Source: an uncultured delta proteobacterium
GTDB lineage: Bacteria; Desulfobacterota; Binatia; DP-6
NCBI GenBank assembly: GCA_963811605.1
Contig: CAWESA010000010.1
Location: forward strand, 6,500 to 70,499
Direction of reading: 5' to 3'
Length of the DNA stretch: 64,000 nucleotides
Of the stretch, positions 19,307 through 35,582 are shown piece after piece (position 1 is the stretch's first letter; every line of letters begins with the position of its first letter). A program made the position numbers and the translations under genes. Under the pieces are notes generated by a model, which was given only the letters and a program-made list of their open reading frames with translations, made no database searches and had not been told where the DNA came from.

Positions 19307-20706
19307 CTAGATGTTCAGGCTGCGCTTCAGGACGCCGAGGGCGGCTTCCCGCACCGCCTCGGGCAGCGTCGGGTGGGCGTGCACCGTGCGCGCGATGTCC
19401 TCGCTGCTGGCGCCGTACTCCATGGCGAGGACCGACTCGGCGATCAGGTCGGACGCGCGCGGGCCGAGGATGTGGACGCCGAGGACCCGGTCGGTCCTGG
19501 CGTCTGCGATCATCTTGACGGCGCCCTCGGTCTCGCCGAGGCACCTGGCGCGCGCGTTGGCCATGAAGGGGAAGGTGCCGATGTTGACGGCGAGGCCGCG
19601 CTCCTTCGCCTGCTCCTCGGTGATGCCCACGCTCGCCAGCTCGGGATGGGTGTAGACGACGTTCGGCACCAGGTCCCAGTCGACGTGCACGGGATGGCCG
19701 GCCATGCCCTCGACGGCGGCGACGGCGTCGTCCTCGGCCTTGTGGGCGAGCATCGGCCCGGCGATCACGTCGCCGACGGCGAAGATGCCCGGCACGCTGG
19801 TCTCGAGACGCTCGTTCGACGACGATGCGCCCGCGCTCGTCGTACGCGACGCCCACCTCGCGCGCGCCGAGGCCCGTCGCTGAACGCCCGGCGCCCGACC
19901 GCCACCAGCACGACGTCGGCGTCGACCACGGGCGGCTCGCCCGGGCCGGCGAGGGTCACGCGGACGCCCGATTCCGTGCGCTCCGCCGACCTGGCCTGCG
20001 TCGAGAGCCGGAACCGCATGCCCTGCTTGTCGAGCGCGCGCTGCAGCTGCCTGGCCATCGCGCCGTCGGCCCACGGCACGATGCGGTCGAGGAACTCGAC
20101 CACCAGCACCTCGGAGCCGAGCCGCCGCCACACCGAGCCCAGCTCGAGCCCCACCGCGCCGGCGCCGATGACGAGCAGGCGCTCCGGCACCCGCGACAAG
20201 GACAGCGCCTCGGTCGAGCACACGATGCGCTCGCCGTCGAAGGGCAGCCCCGGCAGCGGCGTCGGCTCGCTCCCGGTGCAGATGAGCACGCGCGCGGTCT
20301 CGAGCGCGGTCTCGCCCTCGGCGCCCGCCACCGCCACGCGATCGGCGGCGGCAATCCGTCCCGTGCCCGTGAAGCGCGCGATCTTGTGCTTCCTGAACAG
20401 ACCGGCCACGCCGTTGGTGAGCCCGTTCACGACCTTGTCCTTGCGCGCCATCATGGCGGGCAGGTCGAGCGCGACGTCGCCGACGCGCACCCCGTGCACG
20501 GCGAGGCCGTCGGTGGCGAGGTGGAAGTGCTCGCTCGAATCGAGCAGCGCCTTCGACGGGATGCAGCCCACGTTGAGGCACGTGCCGCCGAGCGGGACGT
20601 CCTTCTCCACCACGGCGACGCGCATGCCGAGCTGGGCGGCGCGGATGGCGCCCGTGTAGCCGGCCGGCCCGCCGCCGATCACGACCAGGTCGAAGCGGTC
20701 GGCCAT
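19307..20706 (-). pseudogene. lpdA: Dihydrolipoyl dehydrogenase (E3 component) interrupted by two +1 frameshifts (sequencing error or pseudogene)
   Basis: N-terminus [17 protein letters not shown]...GGTCLNVGCIPSK (FAD/redox-disulfide) in one frame. Then ...VAVGRRAFSDG | LGAREVGVAYDERGRIVV | DERLETSVPGIFAVGDVI... continues across two further frames within ~75 nt (extra G near 19880, extra A near 19830). The C-terminal interface domain is intact to the stop at 19307. The ATG overlaps the sucB stop (ATGA). Confidence 0.85.
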
Positions 20707-22016
20707 CAGACGTCGAGGAGGAGGCGGCCCGGGTCCTCCAGGCGCTCCTTCACGCGCACCAGGAACGTCACCGCCTGCTCGCCGTCGACCAGGCGGTGAT
20801 CGTACGACAGCGCGAGGTACATCATGGGCCGGATCACGATCTGGTCGTTCACCACGACGGGCCGCTTCTCGATCTTGTGCATGCCGAGGATGCCGCTCTG
20901 GGGCGGGTTCAGGATGGGCGTGGAGAGGAGCGAGCCGTAGACGCCGCCGTTCGAGATGGTGAAGGTGCCGCCCTGGAGGTCGTCGACGCCGAGCTTGCCG
21001 TCGCGCGCCAGACCGGCGAGGCGGGCGATCTCGCGCTCCAGATCGGCGAACGACATGGCGTCGGCGTTGCGCACCACCGGCACGACCAGGCCGCGGTCGG
21101 TGCCGACGGCGACGCCGAGGTTGACGTGGTGGTGGTAGACGACGTCGTCGCCGTCGATCTGCGCGTTGACGCCCGGCACCTCGGCCAGCGCCGCGATGCA
21201 GGCGCGCCCGAAGAACGACATGAAGCCGAGGCCGATGCCGTGCTTCTTCTGGAAGGCGTCCTTGTACTGGGCGCGCATCGCCATCATCGCGCTGCAGTCG
21301 AGCTCGTTGAAGGTGGTGAGGATGGCGGCCGTGTGCTGGGCCGCGACCAGGCGCTCCGCGATGCGCTTGCGGATGCGCGTCATGGCGACGCGCTCCTCGC
21401 CCGCGCCCGCCGGACGCGCCGCGGCCGGCGCGGGCGCCGCCGGTCTGGGCGCGGGGGCGGCGGCCGGCGGCGCGACCGCCTGGGGCCGGGCGGCGGCGGC
21501 CTCGGCCATCGCCTCGCGGCGCTCGAGGTGCGTCAGCACGTCGCCCTTGGTGATCCGGCCGCCCTTGCCCGAGGCCGGGATGACGCCGGCATCGAGGCCG
21601 TGCTCGTCGATCAGGTTGCGCACGGCGGGGCTCAGCGGCCCGACCGGCCGGCTCGGCGCCGGGGCCGACGCCGGAGGCGGCGGCTCGACCTCGGGCGTGG
21701 TCTCGGCGGGCTTCGGCGCCGCGGCGGGGGGCGGCGCGGCCTGCTCGGGCGCCTTCCGGGCGGCCGGAGCGGCGGCGCGCGTGTCGCCGTCCTCGATGCG
21801 GGCGACGACGTCGCCCGGCACCACCGTCGCGCCTTCCGGCTTCACGATGCGGAGCACGCCGGCGTACTCCGCCGGCAGCTCGGTGGCGGCCTTGTCGCTC
21901 TCCAGCTCGAGGATCACGTCGTCGGGGGCGACGGTGTCGCCGTCGGCCTTGGCCCAGCGGGAGATGGTGGCCTCGGTGACGGATTCGCCGAGACTCGGGA
22001 TGCGCACCTCGAACAT
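20706..22016 (-). CDS. sucB: Dihydrolipoyllysine-residue succinyltransferase (E2 of 2-oxoglutarate dehydrogenase)
   Basis: Lipoyl domain ([22 protein letters not shown]), Ala/Pro-rich linkers, E3-binding domain, and catalytic domain with DHRLVDG. Confidence 0.9.
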
Positions 22017-22028
22017 GCTCGTCCCCCG

Positions 22029-24830
<2,802 letters not shown>

Positions 24831-25425: not shown

Positions 25426-28400
25426 TTAGTCCAGGGGGGCTCCTCGACCGATCCAATCCTCGACCACACGGAATTTTGCACCACCCACTTCGAAGCCCTG
25501 CACCGTCCCGCCGCCGTGCGGCACGCGCCCCGAAGGCTTGAGGAGCAACAAGCTCGTGTCGGGTCGCGTCGGCGTCACCCGGATGCGCGCGGGTCCGTAC
25601 GCCTGTTCCGGCGTGCCGCCGAGGTCGAACCCGTTCGGCGGGGTCGGTCCGGTGTGGCAGCCGCGGCACACCTCGAGCTGGGGCGAGACATCGGCTCGAA
25701 AAGCCGATCTCACAGTTCCGGTCTGCCGCGCGAGTACTGACACGAACGTTCGATCCGTGCCGGCGGTACCGAGCGACGGATCGCGCACGGCGAATTCGAC
25801 GGTGTGGAAACCCAGGGTCGCAGGTGCCAGTCGCGCGACAGCGTGGTCCGCGTCCGACAGCATCGGGGGCGCGCCGGCGGGGAAGGACACGATCGTCGCG
25901 GAGTGCTGCGCATCGTCGGGGAGGTTGAGGCTGAAGGAGGTATCCAGCACCGCAATGTTCCCGACGTCGACTTCACGCGGCGCGCGGACGCGCGCGATGA
26001 CGCGCCCGGGCCTCAGCTCACGTCCGCATGTGAGCAGCTCGCCGCGGGACAGGAACGTCTCGCCGGCGGACGGTTCGAGCAGATACGCGTGCGTTCTATC
26101 CGTCAGCGACAGAACTCCGGCATACGATCGACTCCGATCCAGCACTCCCCACGCGCGCCCGCCGTCGAGGCTCCGAACCGGATTTGCGGTCGACGACGAG
26201 GCGTCGGCATAGAGTACTCCGGGAGTGAACGGATCGAATGCCAGCCGCGTGAACGGCGTGAGCAGGCGCCACGTCCCGCCGCGGTCGTCGCTCCGCCACG
26301 CGGCCCGCCCCTCGGCCGGATCGTTCGAGAGGCCTTGGACGATCAGCACCTTCTCGTCGTGCGGATCTACGATGATGTTGTCGAGCAGCGCCGCCGGCTG
26401 CGTCGGGAGTGGTGTCCAGTTTGCACAGTCGGTCGTCTCTTGCGGGACGCCGTCGACGATGCCGAAGACCGTCGGAGGCTGTCCGGGTACGACGGAAGCT
26501 GGCGTGACGGCCCGCACGTTCTGGGCACAGAACGTCCAGGTGCCCTCCAGGTGGTAGAGGTCATGCTGCCCTGCGGGATCGCTGTTCTCGCGCAGCACCA
26601 GGTAGACCTGGGCCGGGGGCAGGCCGTCGGCGCTGGGGCCTATCGCGAGTTGCTCGACGAACCGTGGGGCCGGGAGGCCTTCCTCGAAGTCCGTCGTCGA
26701 CCAGTTGTTGTTCGAGCTTCGAAGGACACGGTCCGGTGTCACCAGCGCATACTTCACACGCGTGTCGAGCGGATCGAATGCCAGGGCGAGCGGGACACCC
26801 GAGGTGGGAAACCGCGTCATCGGGTTGCCCCAGCTCGCGCTGCTGGCGCCTACCGTGATCTGCCGCGCCTGGAGCTGCCCGTCGACCAGTCCTGCGGCGA
26901 GGAGGTGGGCAGGATTCCCGGGTTCGGCGGCGGCCACGGACACCACCATGCCCTTCCCCGACGCACCGAGAGACTCCCACGTGAACTCTCCCGGAAGGAC
27001 ATCACCGATGGTGGAAGGTCCCGTGCTGGAGCTCGTCCAGAATCTCTCGAAGGTGCGTCGAGCGAGCGGCATCTGACCGTCCTCGCACACCAGCTGTCGG
27101 ACGCCATTCGAGAGGAGGCGGAACTGCTCGAGCGAGTTCAGGGGTAGCGCGGTCTGCGCATGGCATCCACGACAGCCGTGGCGGATGGCGTCGTAGAGCG
27201 ACGGATCTTGCAGCCACCCGTTTGGAACGAACGATGAATCGAACGTCGTCCTCGGTAGTCCCTGGCCGCCATACCATCCCTCGATCAGCTCTTTGATCGC
27301 GGCAGAAGGCTGGTAAAGGCGCTGATCCGCGTCGAGAACCGCACGATTCAGCTCCCTGAACTGCGACTCCTGCGCGGCACGGCTGAGGTCCGGTCGGGGG
27401 GAATAGTCGAACGAATCGAGGTCGAAGGGAATGAAGCGAGCGCCGAGATTGCCCCCGGAGGGTGCGTAGCCCCCGGCCGCACGCCCGCCGTGGCAGGGAG
27501 TGCATAGCTCGGGCTGGAACTTCACGCCGCGCCCGTCGAGATCTATGCAGTCGAGCCGCGCGCCGGCGACGCCGTAGGTGAAGAACTTGATGAAGGGCTG
27601 CGCACTCGGATCGTCATCCGGCGAAGACAGCTCCATGGCGACGGTAGCCAGCAACCCCTTCTTGAGCGGATCTAGAGCCGCATCCGCGCTGCAGTAGTTC
27701 TCCACGTAGAAGGCGATTCGATGATCGTCGTCACGGCGCATCGACATGCGCCGGCCAAATCCCAGATCGTTCGCATTGACGTAGATCGCCAATGCCTGTG
27801 GTGGCCCAAACCCGTTGACCGTCCTCCAACCGTCGAGCGTCGTGCGGAGGTGATAGGGGTCGACGACGTCGTAGTAGTCCCCGGCATCGGGCGCTGGCGG
27901 GAGATCGCGGAAGGCGAAGCTGAGGAAGGAGTGGGGATCGGGAGGCAGATCGTCCGGCGCGACGTGCCCGCAGAGCGACGGCATGGTCGTGGTGGTCGTC
28001 GAGGTCGTAGTGGTCGCGACCGTCGTGGTGGTGGTGGACGGCGCCGTCGACGTCGTGGAGGTCGTGGTGGGCACGACGGTGCTGGGCGACGGTGCCGTCG
28101 TCGTCGTGGTCGCCTTGATCGTGCTGGTCGACGGCGCGATCGTCGTCGTGGCGGGTACGATCGTAGTGGGCGACGCGTCCGTCGTCGTGGTGGGGCCGGC
28201 GATGGTCGTCTGAGTGGACACGCTGGTCGAGGTGGTGGGGCGGGACGTCGACGTACTCGTCGAGGTCGTGGCCGATGTCGGCGCGCTCGTCGTGGTCGTC
28301 GTCGGAGACACCTCGGACTGGAGAACGCAGCGACAGGCGACGCACGACGAGCCCGGAGGACAGGCCGCCAGACCGGGCTCCCCGCAGGTTTCGCCCGGGT

Positions 28401-28866
28401 CGGCGGTTCCGTTGCTGCACCCCGGCGCAGGTGCAGGGCACCGGCAGCCCGCATCGCATACGTCGCCTCCCGCACACTGTCGGCCTGGCGGATCGCACTC
28501 CTCGCCACGGACAGCCGTAACGATACCGTCCCCGCACCTCGAGTCGCACGCCATGCCCCCGTCGCTGCAGCAACTCTTGCAGTCCCCGGCGAATCTGCGG
28601 CACTGCGACTTGAGCGTCCGCAACACCCGCTGACGGCATGCCCTCCTCGCATCCGCGTTGCAGTCTCGAGATGCACGCTCCCTAGCCTGCGTGATGCACG
28701 CTCGGAGCGCGCTGCGGCAATTCCTGGCACACGGACCGGGCCTCGGCACCGCGGCGGCACGCGCCGCGATGCCGGCCAGCGCGACGGCCACCAAGCACGA
28801 GGCAATTCGTGACCCGCGTGAACTGGAGGTGGACAACCTTCGCTGCCCCGTGCGTGGCCGTGGCAT
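25426..28866 (-). CDS. Large secreted multidomain protein: signal peptide, myxo-type Cys-rich repeats, Thr/Ser-rich linker, three CxxCH (PSCyt-like heme-binding) motifs, BNR/Asp-box repeats
   Basis: Start proposed at ATG 28866 (MPRPRTGQRRL...CLVAVALAGIAARAAAV). N-terminal CGDGIVTAVRGEECDPPG repeat. A ~110-aa T/S/P linker. CTPCHGG, CRGCHAQ and CRGCHTG followed by ...SLLLLKPSGRVPHGGG, reminiscent of planctomycete cytochrome c domains. SDDRGGTW and SLDGGRAW Asp-boxes. Confidence 0.8.
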   Translation of the reverse strand: MPRPRTGQRRLSTSSSRGSRIASCLVAVALAGIAARAAAVPRPGPCARNCRSALRACITQARERASRDCNADARRACRQRVLRTLKSQCRRFAGDCKSCCSDGGMACDSRCGDGIVTAVRGEECDPPGRQCAGGDVCDAGCRCPAPAPGCSNGTADPGETCGEPGLAACPPGSSCVACRCVLQSEVSPTTTTTSAPTSATTSTSTSTSRPTTSTSVSTQTTIAGPTTTTDASPTTIVPATTTIAPSTSTIKATTTTTAPSPSTVVPTTTSTTSTAPSTTTTTVATTTTSTTTTTMPSLCGHVAPDDLPPDPHSFLSFAFRDLPPAPDAGDYYDVVDPYHLRTTLDGWRTVNGFGPPQALAIYVNANDLGFGRRMSMRRDDDHRIAFYVENYCSADAALDPLKKGLLATVAMELSSPDDDPSAQPFIKFFTYGVAGARLDCIDLDGRGVKFQPELCTPCHGGRAAGGYAPSGGNLGARFIPFDLDSFDYSPRPDLSRAAQESQFRELNRAVLDADQRLYQPSAAIKELIEGWYGGQGLPRTTFDSSFVPNGWLQDPSLYDAIRHGCRGCHAQTALPLNSLEQFRLLSNGVRQLVCEDGQMPLARRTFERFWTSSSTGPSTIGDVLPGEFTWESLGASGKGMVVSVAAAEPGNPAHLLAAGLVDGQLQARQITVGASSASWGNPMTRFPTSGVPLALAFDPLDTRVKYALVTPDRVLRSSNNNWSTTDFEEGLPAPRFVEQLAIGPSADGLPPAQVYLVLRENSDPAGQHDLYHLEGTWTFCAQNVRAVTPASVVPGQPPTVFGIVDGVPQETTDCANWTPLPTQPAALLDNIIVDPHDEKVLIVQGLSNDPAEGRAAWRSDDRGGTWRLLTPFTRLAFDPFTPGVLYADASSSTANPVRSLDGGRAWGVLDRSRSYAGVLSLTDRTHAYLLEPSAGETFLSRGELLTCGRELRPGRVIARVRAPREVDVGNIAVLDTSFSLNLPDDAQHSATIVSFPAGAPPMLSDADHAVARLAPATLGFHTVEFAVRDPSLGTAGTDRTFVSVLARQTGTVRSAFRADVSPQLEVCRGCHTGPTPPNGFDLGGTPEQAYGPARIRVTPTRPDTSLLLLKPSGRVPHGGGTVQGFEVGGAKFRVVEDWIGRGAPLD
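27960..28330. repeat. Low-complexity GTCGTG/GTGGTC-rich tract encoding the Thr/Ser-rich linker of the large secreted protein
   Basis: Visible as a run of gtcgtggtggtcgtcga... units. Slippage-prone. Confidence 0.6.
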
Positions 28867-29001
28867 GAGCGAGCGACCGTAACGCAGCTCGCCACGGATC
28901 GTCAAGGAAAATATGGATAGTCAATAAGATTCTCTTGAGCAGCGTATTGATTCCATGTGTTCACACTTGCTATTCACGTGCAAGCGCATTAGGACAGGCC
29001 C

Positions 29002-29799
29002 GTGACGAGGAACCGCAGTGTGCTCGAGGACACACGAGCCAGCTCCGAACGACGCCGCTGGGTGTCGGCGCGACGGTTGGCGGGGGTCGTTGCGCTGTTC
29101 ATGGCCGGCACGCTGGTCGGGCGCCCACCGGTCTTCGCATGCGAGCTGGACGGCGTCGTCGGCCCGGGAGAAGAGTGCGACGACGGAAACGACAACGACG
29201 TCGACTGCTGCCGCAACGACTGCACGGCCAACGTCGGCGCCCCGTGCGGGCCGGGCATCACGTGTGGTGCCGATCGATGCAACGCCGCCGGCACGTGCGA
29301 GCGAGTGGCGGCGAATCGCGGCGTGGTCTGCGGGCCGGCAAGCAGTACGTGCGACCCGCCACCTCGATGCGACGGCTCGGGCACGGGGTGCCCCGCGGCA
29401 AAGACGGACAAGTCCCTCTGCGCCTGGAGCATCAAGCCAGCCGGCGACCCGCTGAGGGAGGGGATCTCCGCCCTGTGCAGCGTGCCAGACAATCTGGGTA
29501 CGTCGTCCGGCGGGACTCGCCGTTCCGACTGCGTCTGTGTGGGCAAAGAGCAGGGCGGGGGCAAGCGGCTCACGGCACGCGTGGCTCCGCGGCTCGTGGA
29601 CAAGACGGAAAGCCCCGATGGACCGCGGAAGGAGAAGAGGTTCTTCCTTCGTCTCAACGCGCGAGGCCGGCGGCTCTTGAAGCAGGGCGGAACCCTCACC
29701 GTCGAAGTGAACGCGGTCATTCACCACGGGGATACGGAGAAGGGGTCGGAGCGCAGCCCCCTCAAGAAGTTGATCATGCTGCTGCTACGGAGCAGGTGA
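29002..29799 (+). CDS. Secreted cysteine-rich protein with myxobacterial Cys-rich repeat (TIGR02232-like)
   Basis: Signal peptide (ARRLAGVVALFMAGTLVGRPPVFA), then CELDGVVGPGEECDDGNDNDVDCCRNDC ... CDGSGTGCP. Lies in the lower-GC islet. Confidence 0.7.
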   Translation: MTRNRSVLEDTRASSERRRWVSARRLAGVVALFMAGTLVGRPPVFACELDGVVGPGEECDDGNDNDVDCCRNDCTANVGAPCGPGITCGADRCNAAGTCERVAANRGVVCGPASSTCDPPPRCDGSGTGCPAAKTDKSLCAWSIKPAGDPLREGISALCSVPDNLGTSSGGTRRSDCVCVGKEQGGGKRLTARVAPRLVDKTESPDGPRKEKRFFLRLNARGRRLLKQGGTLTVEVNAVIHHGDTEKGSERSPLKKLIMLLLRSR

Positions 29800-29943
29800 A
29801 CCGCAACTGCCGGCACTTCAGACGGTCTTTCGGCCAGAACGCTCTCCAGGCGTTCACCTTTCCGAGGGAGCGGCACGGTCGTCCGCTGCACACACCTCGA
29901 GATCGGGGGAGACGACGAACATGCACACCGGCTCGAGGGAAAA

Positions 29944-31176
29944 TTGCATCGGCACTTCCGTCCGCACGCTCCCACGACCGCCGGAGCGCGCGTGGAGCGC
30001 CGTGCTCAACAGCTGTTCCAACGAGTGGGCGAAATGCCGGTCGTGATCGGGCGATCCGTAGGCGAAGGCGGTACCAACAACCCCGCCGATGTCACACAGA
30101 TCGACGGCTTGCTGGCGAAGGTCGGAGTGCTGAGAGCGATCCGGGCCACCGCCGCGACACGACACGTAGCGATAAAGCGATTCCAGCAGATATGGGGTCT
30201 CGGGTCTGGCGGCAAGTTCGACGGCCGGATCGACCCCAACGCGACCACTCTCAGGAGGCTCAACGAGACCGCGAGGGGACTGACCCTCAACGCGATCGGT
30301 CTCGGCACGATCAAACGCGGCGGCTATCTGATCTCACACACCCCCAAGGCACCGCCCGCCCCGTACAGGCTTCTGCTGGGGCCATCGGTCCAGGACTGCA
30401 TCGACGTGACCGGTCGTCCGAGCGCGGATCTCCTCGACGTCCCCAAGCTCGTCGAGCTGCTCAAGCTGATCCAGAAGCTCGGCAAGTGGGGACAGATGCT
30501 GAGCGTAAAATTGCTCGTCGTACTTGACGGGCAGCCCGTGTCGGAATCGCTTCCCCAAGTATTGAACTGCCCGGTACAGCCACATAACGGCAGGATGCTG
30601 CCGCTCGATTTAACCGGAAACGGGAGCAAGCTGACGTACCAGGGTGACCCGGACAGAAACGAATTCAGTGGTCGCCTTCTTCACAAGATCGAAGGTTTCG
30701 ACGGATACTTCTTCAAGTACGCCGGGAAGTTCGAGACCAGCGCGAGCCGGCGTGGCTTTGACTGCATCACTTACGTGGGAACCACATGCGGGGCCCCCGA
30801 TGACGCGATGACCGCGAGCCCGCAACTCGCGGATGCCATGAACGCCAAGCGGTGTTCGATCGAACGGCTCGTCTCGCAAGATTCGCCCACCGGCCAGACG
30901 CCACCGACGGCCGCCCCGCGGACCAAGAAGGTCACGCTCGAGCTGGAGCAGACGGATCCGCAGAACGTCAAGGACTTCTTCGCAAGCAAGCCGACCGGTT
31001 ACTACCTCATGTGGAGCGGCGGGCACATCGTGATCGTGGCCGATGGCTCGGTGTACGAATTCGCCGCATCCAGAAAGGGGTACGTCGCAACGCCGGTGTC
31101 CTCGTGGCTCGAGCCTTACAGGACCAAGAGGCTCACCGTTCGCGAGCTCCCGTCAAAGCCGGCTTTGGCCACCTGA
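29944..31176 (+). CDS. Peptidoglycan-binding domain protein with C-terminal NlpC/P60-like cysteine peptidase motifs, no signal peptide
   Basis: PG_binding_1-like region (VTQIDGLLAKVGVLRA...AIKRFQQIWGLGSGGKFDGRIDPNATTLRRLNE). C-terminal FDCITYVG (NlpC/P60 DCSG-like Cys) and GYYLMWSGGHIVIVADGSVYEFAAS (His motif). TTG start at 29944; GTG 29989 or ATG 30034 are alternatives. GGGGGAG SD-like motif ~35 nt upstream of the TTG (too far to act as its RBS). Confidence 0.6.
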   Translation: MHRHFRPHAPTTAGARVERRAQQLFQRVGEMPVVIGRSVGEGGTNNPADVTQIDGLLAKVGVLRAIRATAATRHVAIKRFQQIWGLGSGGKFDGRIDPNATTLRRLNETARGLTLNAIGLGTIKRGGYLISHTPKAPPAPYRLLLGPSVQDCIDVTGRPSADLLDVPKLVELLKLIQKLGKWGQMLSVKLLVVLDGQPVSESLPQVLNCPVQPHNGRMLPLDLTGNGSKLTYQGDPDRNEFSGRLLHKIEGFDGYFFKYAGKFETSASRRGFDCITYVGTTCGAPDDAMTASPQLADAMNAKRCSIERLVSQDSPTGQTPPTAAPRTKKVTLELEQTDPQNVKDFFASKPTGYYLMWSGGHIVIVADGSVYEFAASRKGYVATPVSSWLEPYRTKRLTVRELPSKPALAT

Positions 31177-31352: not shown

Positions 31353-31452
31353 GAATATCACGGCACTTCCGTCGCTGTTTACCCTTGACCGCGACACTTG
31401 CTCGTGAGAATCGATGTGCCGCAACGAGACCACCCGCAGCCCGACGAGGTCC

Positions 31453-32039
31453 ATGATGCCAATGTACGCGTTGCAGTACGCAGTACTCGGCCTCATCTCT
31501 GCACGCGAGGCAGGGGTCCACGGCTACCGACTGAAGAACGAGTTCGAGGCCCTCTACGGCGACTTCTGGGCGCTCAACTACGGGCAGATGTACCGTACCC
31601 TCGACCGCCTCGAACGCGCAGGCTTGATCGAGGGCTTCGACGAGCTGCAGACGCGACGGCCCAATCGCAAGGTCTTCCGCATCACCAAGCAGGGCAGGAA
31701 GCGCCTCGACGCATGGCTCGTGCATCCACCGAGTCAGGAGCCGCGCCCGCTGCGCGACGAGCTTTCGCTGAAGCTGCTGTTCCTGGCGGAGGCGCGCCTC
31801 GATGAGATGCGCGCCATCATCAGCACGCAGCGCGCGCTCTACCTCCAGCACCTCAGCCGGCTCAACAAGCGCCGCGACACGGTCATGGACACCCGGGAGG
31901 GATTCGTCATGAAGCTGCTGTTGAGCCAGGCAGACATGCGGGTGCGCTCGGATCTCGCCTGGCTCGATCTGGTCGAGACGGAGGTGGCAAAGCGCTGCAC
32001 GGCGTCCGCGGCCGCACTCCCGCACTCCGGCAAGGAGCG

Positions 32040-32043
<4 letters not shown>
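31453..32043 (+). CDS. PadR family transcriptional regulator
   Basis: MYALQYAVLGLISAREAGVHGYRLKNEFE...WALNYGQMYRTLDRLERAGLIEG winged-helix signature. The listed ORF starts at 31414; ATG 31453 is the more likely start. Stop overlaps the next gene (ATGA). Confidence 0.85.
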
Positions 32044-32744
<701 letters not shown>

Positions 32745-32749
32745 TCCGG

Positions 32750-34815
32750 TCAGCGCCTCCGCGCCGCGCGCAGCCCGTCGGCGCGCTCCGCGAGCCGCTT
32801 CGACTCCGCGCCGTCACGCAGCGAGGGATCGGGCGCCTTGGCGAGCACCGCCGTCAGGTTGTCGAGCACCGCGACGTTGTCGGGCTCGCTCTCCAGAGCC
32901 ATCCGGTACTCGGCGATCGCCTCCCGCATCTTGCCCTGCTTCTGGTACGCGACGCCGAGGTTGTTGTGCGCGTCGGCGTAGCGCGGCCGCAGCGCGATCG
33001 CCTGCCGGTACTGCCCGATCGCGTCGCCGAGCCGCCCGCGCTGCTGGAGCGCCAGGCCGAGGTTGTAGTGCGCCTCCGCGTAGCCAGGGTCGAGCGCGAT
33101 CGCCTTCTCGAAGCGCGCCGTCGCCAGGTCGTCGCGCCCGAGCGCGAGGAGCGCGCGCCCGAGGTTGTTGTGCGCCAGCGCGAAGTCGGGATCGATGCGG
33201 AGCGCGGCCGTGTACTCGGTGACTGCCTCGTCGGCGCGGCCGGCCCGGGTGAGCGCGTTGCCGAGGTTGTTGTGGGCGCGCGCCATGTCGGGCGCGAGCG
33301 TGATCGCGGCGCGGTAGCTGGCGATCGCCTCGTCGGTGCGGCCGGCGGCGAGGAGCCCGTTGCCCAGGTTGAAGGCGGCGGCGGCGCTCATGGGGCTGAG
33401 CTCCTCGGCGCGACGGTAGTGCGCCAGCGCCTCGTCCACCTGCCCCGTCGCCACGAGCGCGTTCGCGAGGTTGGTGTGCGCGGAGGCGTACGCCGGCGTG
33501 ATCGCGAGCGCGCGGCGCAGGTGCTCGACGGCCTCGTCGATGCGGCCGGCGTCGAGCAGCGCCGCGCCCAGGTTGCCCTCCGCCAGGTCGTTGCGCCCGG
33601 TGACCGCGAGCGCGTGCCGCCACAAGGTCTCGCTGTCGCGCCAGGTCGCCGCCTGGCGGTGCGCCAGGACGGCGAGCGCGACGAGGCACGCCGTCGCGAC
33701 GGCACCCGCCGCCAGCCGGCGCACGCGCGACGCTCCGACCACGTCGGCCACGCCCCAGGCGACGGCGAGGAGCAGCCCGATCTGCGGCAGGTAGGTGTAG
33801 CGGTCGGCGCGCGCCTGGGCCCCCACCTGCACGATGCCGATCACCGGCGCCAGCATGACGAGGTACCAGAGCCAGCCGACCAGCAGGTACGGCCGCGCTC
33901 GCCGCTGGAGCACGACGGCCAGCGTGAGCGCCGCCAGGAGCGCGAGCGCCAGCACGATCGCCGCCGGCGACTGCTCGCGGTGCGGGATAGAACGCCGCCA
34001 GGCCGCTCGGCCAGACCAGCGCGCTGAGATACGCCACGCATGCCACCGCCGCGTTGCCGAGCCGGTCCGCGAGCGAGAACTGCTCGAACGGCTGGAGCGC
34101 CCCCGCCTGGGCCGCGCAGCGTCAGGACCACCGACGCCGCCGCCAGCGCGAGCAGCGGCAGCTTCTCCGGCAGCGTGCGGCGGAGCGGGCGCAACCGCCC
34201 GAGTGGCCAGACGTCGAGCAGCAGCAGCACCACCGGCACGGTCACCAGCATCGGCTTGCAGAGGAGCCCGAGCGCGAGCAGCGCGGCCACCGGGAGGTAG
34301 CGCGCGATCGAGGGCCGGCGCGTGTAGCCCGCGTACGCCAGCAGGACCAGCATGAAGAAGACGGCGCTGAGCACGTCCTTCCGCTCCGACACCCACGCCA
34401 CCGACTCGGCGCGCAGCGGGTGCACGGCGAACGCCGCCGCGACGAACGCGCTCGGCCAGAGCGCGCCCGTCATGGCGTGCAGCGCCAGGAGGAGCAGCAC
34501 CGAGGCCAGCGCGTGCAGCAGCACGCTGGTGACGTGGTGCCCGCCCGGCGCGAGCCCGAAGAGCTGCACGTCGAGCATGTGCGACAGCCAGGTGAGCGGG
34601 TGCCAGTTGTCGGCGTGGGTGGCGGCGAACGCCCAGGCGACGCCGTCGCGCGTGAGCCCGCGGGCGACGACCGGGTTGCGGAACAGGTAGGCGTCGTCGT
34701 CGTAGTTGACGAAGCCGTGCTGGCGCGTCTGGCCGAACACCAGCCAGACGGCGGCGACCAGCGCCACGCCGGCCGCCGCCAGCGCGAGCGGGCGGCGGCG
34801 ATCGCCCGGGGTCAC
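32750..34815 (-). pseudogene. TMTC-like GT-C fold glycosyltransferase (DUF1736-type membrane domain) fused to C-terminal TPR repeats; reading frame broken by two +1 insertions
   Basis: Membrane domain ...FVNYDDDAYLFRNPVVARGLT...NWHPLTWLSHMLDVQLFGL...HHVTSVLLHA...HPLRAESVAWVSERKDVL in frame 1. ...AAQAGALQPFEQFSLADRLGNAAVACVAYLSALVWPSGLAAFYP in frame 3. ...HREQSPAAIVLALA...IGIVQVGAQARADRYTYLP... plus ~9 TPR repeats in frame 2. The GTG start at 34815 overlaps the stop of the upstream gene. Confidence 0.75.
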
Positions 34816-35582
34816 GACGGCCGGTCTCTGGCGACCCCGGCGTCGACGGCGCGCCACGCCGGCGCGCGCAGCAGCGCGCCGGCGGCCTCGGCGAGCCGGC
34901 GCTCGGCCTCGAATTGCTGGCGGCCCACGCGCAGCACGGCGGGCCAGCACCACGGCCGCAGCAGCAGTGCGCGCGCCGCCGCGGCGTAGGCGATCTCGCC
35001 CGTGTCGGCGTCGATGGCCTCGGCCAGGAACGGCAGCTCGTCGGCGTGCGCGTCGAGCACCACGCGCAGCGCCGTGAACGGCACGCGGCGGCGGGCGGCC
35101 TCGCAGGCGAGCGCCCAGCTCTCCATGTCGACCAGCACGGCGCCGCAGCCGGCTGCCGCGGTCTTCTCGGCGGTGGAGACGAGCACGCCGGGCGTCGAGG
35201 CGATCACGCCGCGCTGCGCGCCGACCTCGGCCGCGGGCACCAGCGCCGGCCGGCGCGCTTCGGGGCGACAGGCGCGGTCGAGGCTCACCACCTCGGTGGC
35301 GACCACGACGTCGCCCGTGCGCACCCACGGCACCAGGCCGCCGCCGCAGCCGAGCGACAGGAACGCCCGCGCGGGCGGGATCGTCGCGGCGATGCTGGCG
35401 GCGCGCGCGGGGCCGATGCCCACCTGCGTCAGCAGGCACGATCCGCCGTCGCCGAGCCGCCCGCGCCACTGGCGCGGCCGCTCCGTCGGCTGCACGTCGG
35501 CCAGCCCTCCCAGCACCGCCCGCGTCTCCCAGCCGAGCGCCGTGAAAGCCGCGACGTCGACCGCCGGCGGCTGGCCGGTCAC
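34812..35582 (-). CDS. Purine nucleoside phosphorylase/MTA-nucleosidase family protein (HpnG/MqnB-like)
   Basis: ...TQVGIGPARAASIAATI...FLSLGCGGGLVPWVRTGDVVVATEVVSLD...AVLVDMESWALACEAARRRVPFTALRVVLD. The GTG start at 35582 overlaps the WS/DGAT stop (GTGA). Confidence 0.7.
   Translation of the reverse strand: MTGQPPAVDVAAFTALGWETRAVLGGLADVQPTERPRQWRGRLGDGGSCLLTQVGIGPARAASIAATIPPARAFLSLGCGGGLVPWVRTGDVVVATEVVSLDRACRPEARRPALVPAAEVGAQRGVIASTPGVLVSTAEKTAAAGCGAVLVDMESWALACEAARRRVPFTALRVVLDAHADELPFLAEAIDADTGEIAYAAAARALLLRPWCWPAVLRVGRQQFEAERRLAEAAGALLRAPAWRAVDAGVARDRPS

Follow-up and report, generated by a model that had tools for sequence, protein, structure and literature searches.

The NlpC/P60 peptidoglycan endopeptidases/amidases (MEROPS C40, PF00877), among them MepS of E. 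coli and LytE and CwlO of B. subtilis, carry a nucleophilic Cys in a D-C-x-x-(F/Y) motif at the N-terminus of a helix, a His in a G-H-(V/I) strand and a polar third residue 10-12 positions after the His on the next strand, and they are often fused to wall-binding domains. Another described group comprises the T6SS (type VI secretion system) amidase effectors, Tae1-Tae4 (including Tse1 and Tae4/Ssp1), which are signal-less papain-like Cys-His hydrolases of roughly 150-170 amino acids (aa) with a single domain, and which are accompanied by Tai immunity proteins. In this work, we describe a gene located in a 64,000-nucleotide stretch of DNA from an uncultured delta proteobacterium of the Binatia (contig CAWESA010000010.1; the whole stretch is referred to below as the window). 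Its 380-aa product consists of an N-terminal PG_binding_1-like head, a middle domain and a C-terminal domain with a conserved Cys-His-Glu triad. We estimate at about one in two the probability that this gene encodes an orphan T6SS-type peptidoglycan-hydrolase effector of a new Tae-like family.

Two further systems are relevant for comparison. The YkfC / AvPCP-type NlpC/P60 recycling peptidases are multi-domain NlpC/P60-like cysteine peptidases with N-terminal accessory domains, and YkfC-type enzymes are thought to be intracellular. PG_binding_1 (PF01471) modules, known from wall enzymes and vgrG-locus proteins, are three-helix domains with the signature ...FQ...GL..DG..DP.T...L. In a survey of vgrG loci, PG_binding_1 was one of six domain families occurring as stand-alone genes, at VgrG C-termini and/or at toxin N-termini, and a role in effector discrimination was proposed (PMC10673891).

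The family to which the window protein belongs is of a known kind, that of wall hydrolases with a papain fold, a wall-binding head, no signal peptide and an association with the T6SS. Neither Pfam nor NCBIfam, PADLOC or PDB contains the family itself, its middle domain, its Glu-containing triad or the family of a ~273-aa partner protein encoded next to many of its members, and literature searches found no description of any of them. With NlpC/P60 enzymes the family shares all of the features listed above, namely the order of Cys, His and polar third residue, the motifs and structural positions of the first two, the spacing and placement of the third, and the fusion to a wall-binding type of domain. 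In contrast to them, it has an invariant Glu as third residue, preceded by H/Y, matches no PF00877 profile, lacks a signal peptide, carries a Cys-His insert of 59-132 residues with extra helices and strands, and possesses an obligatory middle domain of ~120 aa. Similarly to the Tae/Tai systems, the family consists of signal-less papain-like Cys-His hydrolases, some members lie in T6SS clusters and many have an adjacent signal-peptide-bearing partner; unlike Tae1-4, the window protein has 380 aa and is built of three domains, the partner family matches no Pfam family, Tai families included, and the window copy stands without T6SS genes or partner. In contrast to the YkfC / AvPCP enzymes, which have SH3b domains, a PF00877 match and synteny with recycling genes, the family shows none of these, apart from one locus with a peptide ABC transporter.

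The gene and the domains of its product

The features of the gene and of its product are listed below by position in the window. Residue numbering throughout refers to the 380-aa protein that starts at ATG 30034 and whose stop codon ends at 31176. The confidence of the AlphaFold (AF2) models is given as the predicted local distance difference test (pLDDT), and GC3 denotes the GC content at third codon positions.

29944..30033, + strand: in-frame stretch upstream of the preferred start, with the alternative starts TTG 29944 and GTG 29989; probably 5' untranslated region, without counterpart in homologs.
30034..31176, + strand: coding sequence with the preferred start ATG 30034 (380 aa and stop; GC3 0.79; AF2 pLDDT 94.4).
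30034..30288, + strand: PG_binding_1-like three-helix domain (aa 1-85), degenerate in the clade of the window protein; assigned from the modelled helices and from PF01471 matches in homologs.
30289..30645, + strand: middle alpha/beta domain (aa 86-204), relative-less; modelled strands 112-118, 121-124, 155-164, 167-171 and 175-178, and helix 136-149.
30571..30591, + strand: near-invariant motif P180-V-Q-P183-H184-N-G186 (P180 159/164, V181 150/164, P183 161/164, G186 136/164).
30646..31173, + strand: predicted papain-like (remote NlpC/P60-like) cysteine hydrolase domain (aa 205-380), from the domain model (pLDDT 90) and hhalign.
30751..30774, + strand: nucleophile motif R240-G-F-D-C244-I-T-Y247 (C244 164/164, R240 158/164, G241 161/164, D243 137 D and 14 N).
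30874..30933, + strand: variable Pro/Thr-rich loop (aa 281-300) between the Cys helix and the His sheet, length-variable and with the lowest pLDDT (65-77).
31021..31062, + strand: G330-H331-IVIVADGSV-Y341-E342-F343, with the putative general-base His and third-residue Glu, from alignment and model.

An earlier note on this DNA had described an open reading frame (ORF) at 29944..31176 (+) with the motif FDCITYVG and a His motif towards its C-terminus. Both motifs are present: FDCITYVG corresponds to residues 242-249, with the codon of Cys244 at 30763-30765, and GGHIVIVADGSVYEFAAS to residues 329-346, with the codons of His331 at 31024-31026 and of Glu342 at 31057-31059. A word-indexed search of 5.8 billion proteins (90% database) yielded 69 homologs, whose E values beyond the species itself are as low as 1e-136. 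When all 1.84 billion cluster representatives (50%) were searched with a profile, 384 had E<1e-10, and 106 of these had E<1e-30. Because of these many homologs with strong E values and the conservation of the catalytic residues, the ORF is judged to be a real gene and not a chance ORF. A scan for promoters and terminators around it gave nothing informative.

The start codon had been left ambiguous between TTG 29944, GTG 29989 and ATG 30034, and the alignment of homologs settles this in favor of the last. The Met at 30034 is the point from which homologs of 368-393 aa can be aligned over their full length; here 'MPVVIGRSVGE' of the window protein faces 'MAISIGASVGE', 'MPVAITKSVGE' and 'MPIMIGKAVGE', while the 15-30 codons upstream are without counterpart in them, which is why ATG 30034 is taken as the start. 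The public annotation (P0214, 394 aa) begins at GTG 29989, with GGAG five bases upstream.

Conservation of the catalytic residues was read from an alignment to the family hidden Markov model (HMM) of 164 sequences, that is, the window protein and 163 representatives covering the catalytic region; the residue counts in the list above and below refer to it. Cys244 and His331 are present in every sequence (164/164 each), and Glu342 in 161/164, the others having D (two) or Q (one). The His-to-Glu spacing is 11 in all sequences but one (163/164), while the Cys-to-His distance varies from 59 to 132; position 341 is occupied by H (117) or Y (41). In the AF2 model of the whole chain (pLDDT 94.4, predicted template modelling score 0.87), helix 244-252 begins with Cys244 and strand 331-336 with His331, and Glu342 is located in the strand after it, 339-344, so that C244, H331 and E342 follow the Cys/His/polar order and the secondary-structure placement of NlpC/P60. 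As modelled, the arrangement is of the papain/NlpC-P60 type, in agreement with the Cys...His...polar set that had been read from the single sequence.

The middle region, already singled out in the earlier note as an uncharacterised domain, has kept that status, as it gave no profile or structure relative and only noise-level Ig/FN3 matches in Foldseek. It contains the family motif P-V-x-P-(H/Y)-x-G, whose position 184 is H in 79 and Y in 38 sequences, and W152, S172 and Y202 are also near-invariant. Forty representatives devoid of the N-terminal head begin at about profile position 86-110 and keep both the middle and the catalytic domains. The middle domain is probably part of the functional core.

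The head is a less direct case. PF01471 does not match the window protein even at E<=10 (the gathering score of 23 bits is not reached), whereas it matches 18 of the 31 aligned homologs at E<=0.1, with a best value of 1e-9. Since the homologs match and the window protein does not, its homology to PG_binding_1 is inferred transitively. In the AF2 model, residues 17-29, 40-54 and 71-81 form three helices (pLDDT about 95), which make up a three-helix bundle. A search of PDB sequences with the family profile gave only weak matches (E 0.08-1.6), to YcbB, CtpB, SleB and a Zn DD-carboxypeptidase, all of which carry peptidoglycan-binding domains. The PG_binding_1 pattern that had been recognized in the sequence is borne out in this indirect way. 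What sets the clade of the window protein apart from described PG_binding_1 modules is a shortened first half of the motif, which brings it below the Pfam threshold; peptidoglycan binding by the head is predicted.

A side observation concerns distant relatives of ~724 aa from Sulfitobacter and Leisingera (L018-L021, L043; P0135, P0139). They have the same PG_binding_1-like head and Cys-His-Glu core, and in them the two are separated by about 400 Lys/Glu/Ala-rich, coiled-coil-like residues.

Relationship to NlpC/P60, Tae and other hydrolases

Direct annotation of the protein was unproductive. The window protein has no meaningful match in Pfam, NCBIfam or PADLOC, even at E<=10, and the C-terminal 300 residues of the family have none in these databases or in PDB sequences. 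Neither single-sequence nor family-profile queries of PDB sequences retrieved anything for the catalytic or middle region. The profiles PF00877, CHAP, Tae4 and Peptidase_C92 match none of the 31 homologs at E<=0.1, nor the window protein at E<=10. A match of the window protein to ObcA_N (E 0.008) lies below the useful threshold and was set aside. With the whole-chain model, Foldseek returned nothing from the PDB but FN3/Ig/complement noise (template modelling score, TM, about 0.14).

A relationship was visible only when profiles were compared with profiles. A profile of 82 diverse C-terminal domains was aligned by hhalign to three families, whose comparison sequences had been checked against PDB entries. 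Against NlpC/P60 (MepS, 7cfl, LytE), the score was 25.9 (P=8e-4, probability 24%), with Cys on Cys and His on His: 'RGFDC' falls on 'GIDCSGF' and 'GH(I/V)V' on 'RHVGIY'. In this register, Cys244 meets the Cys of the MepS 'IDCSGF' motif, and the third-residue His of MepS falls on position 341, one before Glu342. In the controls, 100 column shuffles gave a mean of 11.6 and a maximum of 19.5, none of them reaching 25.9, and the reversed profile gave 11.5. Against Tse1, the score was 18.2 (P=0.022), with Cys and His aligned. A relationship to Tae4 was rejected, as the score of 11.5 (P=0.37) came with no catalytic residues aligned and there was no Pfam Tae4 match. The spacings of Tae4, about 82 between Cys and His and 11 between His and the third residue in published structures, resemble the 87 and 11 found here.

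Structure comparison pointed in a similar direction at a lower level. The model of the C-terminal domain (aa 205-380, pLDDT 90) had no significant Foldseek match in the PDB (best E 0.27, none <=1e-3), and the list of weak matches is rich in papain-fold enzymes: PCAT1 C39, GtgE, NlpC/P60, USP, Josephin and TssM deubiquitinases. The NlpC/P60 entries among them are 8er5 (E 0.48, probability 0.72, 53 columns, root-mean-square deviation 2.7), 4xcm (E 0.8) and CwlO (E 1.2).

These profile comparisons argue for a real but remote relationship to NlpC/P60, at the level of the superfamily and short of family membership, and by the same measure the catalytic domain is not a member of Tae1-4. The assignment to NlpC/P60 or CHAP made in the earlier note is not borne out, as no member has a matching HMM and Foldseek gave no significant match. 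Of the two observations that the earlier note had named as speaking against its own reading, one was made, in that NlpC/P60 and CHAP profiles do not match, and the other was not, as Cys and His are invariant among the homologs.

Genomic context of the homologs and competing explanations

A signal-like hydrophobic N-terminus occurs in just 1-2 of the 163 representatives, so the missing Sec signal is a trait of the family and not an artefact of annotation. The earlier remark that the N-terminus is not hydrophobic and that export would need a non-Sec route holds for the whole family. The route, which the earlier note did not name, is most likely type VI secretion, judging by where the homologs are encoded.

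One example is P0004, which is 56% identical to the window protein over the full length. It lies in a single co-directional run of genes, vipA-vipB-hcp-impE-tssE-tssF-tssG-clpV-[homolog]-93aa-[Peptidase_C92-like]-199aa-vgrG. The gene of another homolog, P0026, adjoins a VgrG-DUF6484-HEAT-DUF2169-PAAR-like cluster on its 3' side, and vipA/B and a sigma-54 activator are encoded 7 kb away. In all, homologs stand beside T6SS genes in two independent loci (L008/L009 and L001-3/L028) and not in about 16 others.

The other recurrent context is a partner gene encoding a protein of ~273 aa with a cleavable signal peptide, which adjoins the homolog in at least 12 independent loci.

11163..11984 in L001, 11116..11940 in L004, and at least 10 other loci: examples of the ~273-aa partner.

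The partner gene usually overlaps the homolog gene downstream and lies upstream in L037 and L039. Its family comprises 38 clusters without a Pfam match, many of them on contigs equal in length to contigs with the hydrolase gene, and several Cys residues as well as an 'APGGF' motif are invariant among four aligned members. The loci themselves are variable and mobile, often with transposase or integrase genes nearby, and their hosts include Verrucomicrobia, Gemmatimonadales, Bryobacterales, Burkholderiaceae/Aquabacterium, Alphaproteobacteria and Roseobacter-group genera.

Because relatives are encoded in T6SS clusters or beside a dedicated periplasmic partner, the most probable role of the window protein is that of an antibacterial toxin that is injected and acts on the cell wall, and not that of a housekeeping enzyme or phage lysin. 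The window copy is an intact but solitary (orphan) member of the family and was probably acquired horizontally. According to the mechanism that we propose, the protein would be made in the cytoplasm of the producer, where it would meet no substrate and hence be harmless, and would be loaded onto the spike or tube of the T6SS, perhaps by way of its N-terminal domain. After injection into the periplasm of neighboring Gram-negative cells, the head would dock on the peptidoglycan sacculus of the target cell, and the Cys-His-Glu site would cut a bond (peptide or amide) in the stem or cross-link and so weaken the wall. For many relatives, the cognate ~273-aa periplasmic protein encoded next door would neutralize the incoming toxin, serving as immunity.

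Several observations weigh against this explanation. Of the ~18 independent loci whose flanks extend to 5 kb or more, only 2 have T6SS genes within 10 kb, and about half of the loci, the window included, are without a conserved neighbor. The gene next after that of the homolog encodes a 93-aa protein in L008 and a 117-aa, HEAT-like one in L010. Neither of these has a signal peptide, contrary to what would be expected of immunity to a periplasmic toxin. The similarity to the known effectors is absent for Tae4 (P=0.37) and marginal for Tse1 (P=0.022). As for the window copy, tblastn detected neither a T6SS gene nor a homolog of the ~273-aa partner in the 64-kb window, and none of the 38 partner clusters lies on the 1.25-Mb (1,253,709-bp) source contig, at the sensitivity of the search that retrieved these clusters.

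The signal-less proteins next to the homologs in L008 and L010 would be expected if the toxin acted in the cytoplasm, and a T6SS- or otherwise contact-delivered toxin with a target other than peptidoglycan (a protease, deamidase or transglutaminase), whose head serves mainly as a loading or recognition module, has to be considered, although we regard it as unlikely. The best weak Foldseek matches include proteases and deubiquitinases (C39 PCAT1, GtgE, M48 USP, Josephin, TssM) besides NlpC/P60, the N-terminal domain is degenerate in the window's clade and fails PF01471, and the discrimination role proposed for PG_binding_1 in vgrG loci (PMC10673891) would suit such a head. However, the best-supported partner has a signal peptide, which is suggestive of the periplasm, the only profile-level relationship above the controls is to the NlpC/P60 peptidoglycan peptidases, and PG_binding_1 is clearly recognizable in most homologs.

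It is likewise doubtful that the protein is a cytoplasmic enzyme of cell-wall peptide recycling, such as a YkfC-like gamma-D-Glu-diamino-acid endopeptidase or an amidase, which is never exported. The lack of a signal peptide across the family and the many solitary copies without secretion or immunity genes would agree with such a role, as would the Gemmatirosa locus, in which the homolog gene directly follows genes for an SBP_bac_5 peptide-binding protein and an ABC permease. Yet the family is scattered patchily over phyla and, of 1.8 billion representatives, fewer than 400 match it at E<1e-10, the GC content of the window copy is atypical, and mobile-element genes lie near homologs. The two T6SS loci and the dedicated secreted partner in at least 12 loci are not what a recycling enzyme would call for, and a sacculus-binding domain is of no obvious use in the cytoplasm.

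The position of the L008 homolog inside a core T6SS operon, between clpV and vgrG, together with its combination of a peptidoglycan-binding domain and a hydrolase, could also indicate a TagX-like accessory enzyme that remodels the wall, opening the producer's own peptidoglycan for T6SS assembly rather than acting as a toxin. We consider this improbable, as the protein has neither a signal peptide nor a membrane anchor that would take it to the periplasm of the producer, T6SS genes are distant from most copies, and a dedicated periplasmic partner encoded next door is more readily explained by immunity than by assembly. Moreover, the position in L008 is that of the variable effector region by vgrG, shared with a second papain-like candidate. 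That candidate (L008 11669..12868; L009 2654..4039) is a signal-less Peptidase_C92/YiiX-like protein (E 2.5e-6) encoded beside the homolog and is followed, in the variable region of the T6SS, by a 199-aa protein of uncharacterised function.

A phage or prophage endolysin released via a holin, corresponding to the phage-like lysin that the earlier note had offered as an option, is very improbable: it would account for a signal-less wall hydrolase, for the weak Foldseek matches in BFVD (probability at most 0.96, E>=5e-3, TM<=0.3), which are to small phage proteins and to two entries named 'peptidoglycan hydrolase', and for the borderline match, below the useful threshold, to phrog_3754 (PHROGs, E 1.2e-3), a family of uncharacterised function, but tblastn against the 50,697 phage genomes of INPHARED gave nothing at E<0.6 (best E 0.6), no plasmid homologs were found, and the neighbors of the window gene include no genes for phage structural proteins, holins or integrases.

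Returning to the T6SS effector, a wider interpretation can be proposed tentatively, and we hold it to be possible rather than probable. The family may represent a superfamily of antibacterial T6SS effectors that has not been described before, a fifth, 'Tae-like' lineage of wall hydrolases with the papain fold, accompanied by a new family of periplasmic immunity proteins of its own and spread horizontally across at least Acidobacteriota, Gemmatimonadota, Verrucomicrobiota, Alpha-/Betaproteobacteria and Binatia-like bacteria, in which the head doubles as T6SS loading signal and the invariant middle domain shapes a new substrate specificity. Should the effector interpretation be correct, the family would add a new T6SS effector-immunity family for soil and sediment phyla, whose T6SS toxins have hardly been explored, and a divergent NlpC/P60/papain branch in which a Cys-His-Glu triad is combined with a new, obligatory accessory domain. 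It would also provide a functional annotation for about 300 residues that are now unannotated or labelled just 'peptidoglycan-binding protein'. The family offers a concrete case for PG_binding_1-like heads as T6SS loading modules. As the window copy is solitary, what it does itself hinges on the presence of a T6SS in its host.

Surroundings of the gene in the window

The gene lies in a segment of divergent base composition, and the features around it are the following.

25426..31176, both strands: low-GC3 island formed by the gene and two genes for secreted Cys-rich proteins (1159 aa, - strand; 265 aa, + strand), delimited by GC3 and by a dip in GC.
29002..29799, + strand: 265-aa Cys-rich protein with a signal-like N-terminus, upstream of the gene and co-oriented with it; weak Disintegrin match alone (E 8e-4).
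25426..28905, - strand: protein of 1159 aa whose N-terminus is signal-like, with a Cys-rich module and a Thr/Ser/Pro-rich linker of ~150 aa; no Pfam match at E<=1e-3.
31414..32744, + strand: PadR regulator gene and overlapping ABC ATPase gene; no permease gene follows, and the next gene is on the opposite strand.
20706..24830, - strand: sucB and sucA (2-oxoglutarate dehydrogenase E2 and E1).

GC3 is 0.79-0.83 in the three island genes and 0.94-0.98 in the flanking housekeeping genes, and the GC content dips to 0.60-0.67 at about 26.9-32 kb against a window mean of 0.72. The island, which is flanked by sucA/sucB on one side and the PadR-ABC pair on the other, was probably acquired horizontally. 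Within the window protein's own clade, no neighbor is conserved beyond same-species contigs, and the 238-bp gap between the gene and PadR contains no ORF.

The 265-aa protein, the sole exported protein nearby, is encoded beside the gene only in the same species (L007, L048) and is absent from all other homolog loci; a part in self-protection is a speculative suggestion. Its Cys-rich module resembles that of the 1159-aa neighbor. The latter also has a large C-terminal region with CxxCH-like motifs and is conserved only in the same-species contig L007.

A PadR gene and an ABC gene also occur near the Gemmatirosa homolog, and shared synteny was considered. The PadR proteins of the two loci are not detectably related at 1e-5, for which reason the likeness is taken as a coincidence.

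The closest named relatives of SucA, at 70-73% identity, come from metagenome-assembled genomes labelled 'Candidatus Binatia' or 'Deltaproteobacteria', and the host is therefore probably a diderm resembling Binatia. Beyond the PadR-ABC pair, at 32750..35469 (-), a 548-aa TPR ORF and a 542-aa membrane-protein ORF overlap by about 555 nt in different frames, and one end of each is Arg-rich and reads like nonsense. The two resemble a single membrane-plus-TPR (TMTC/PMT-like) gene broken by a frameshift, which may be genuine or an assembly error.

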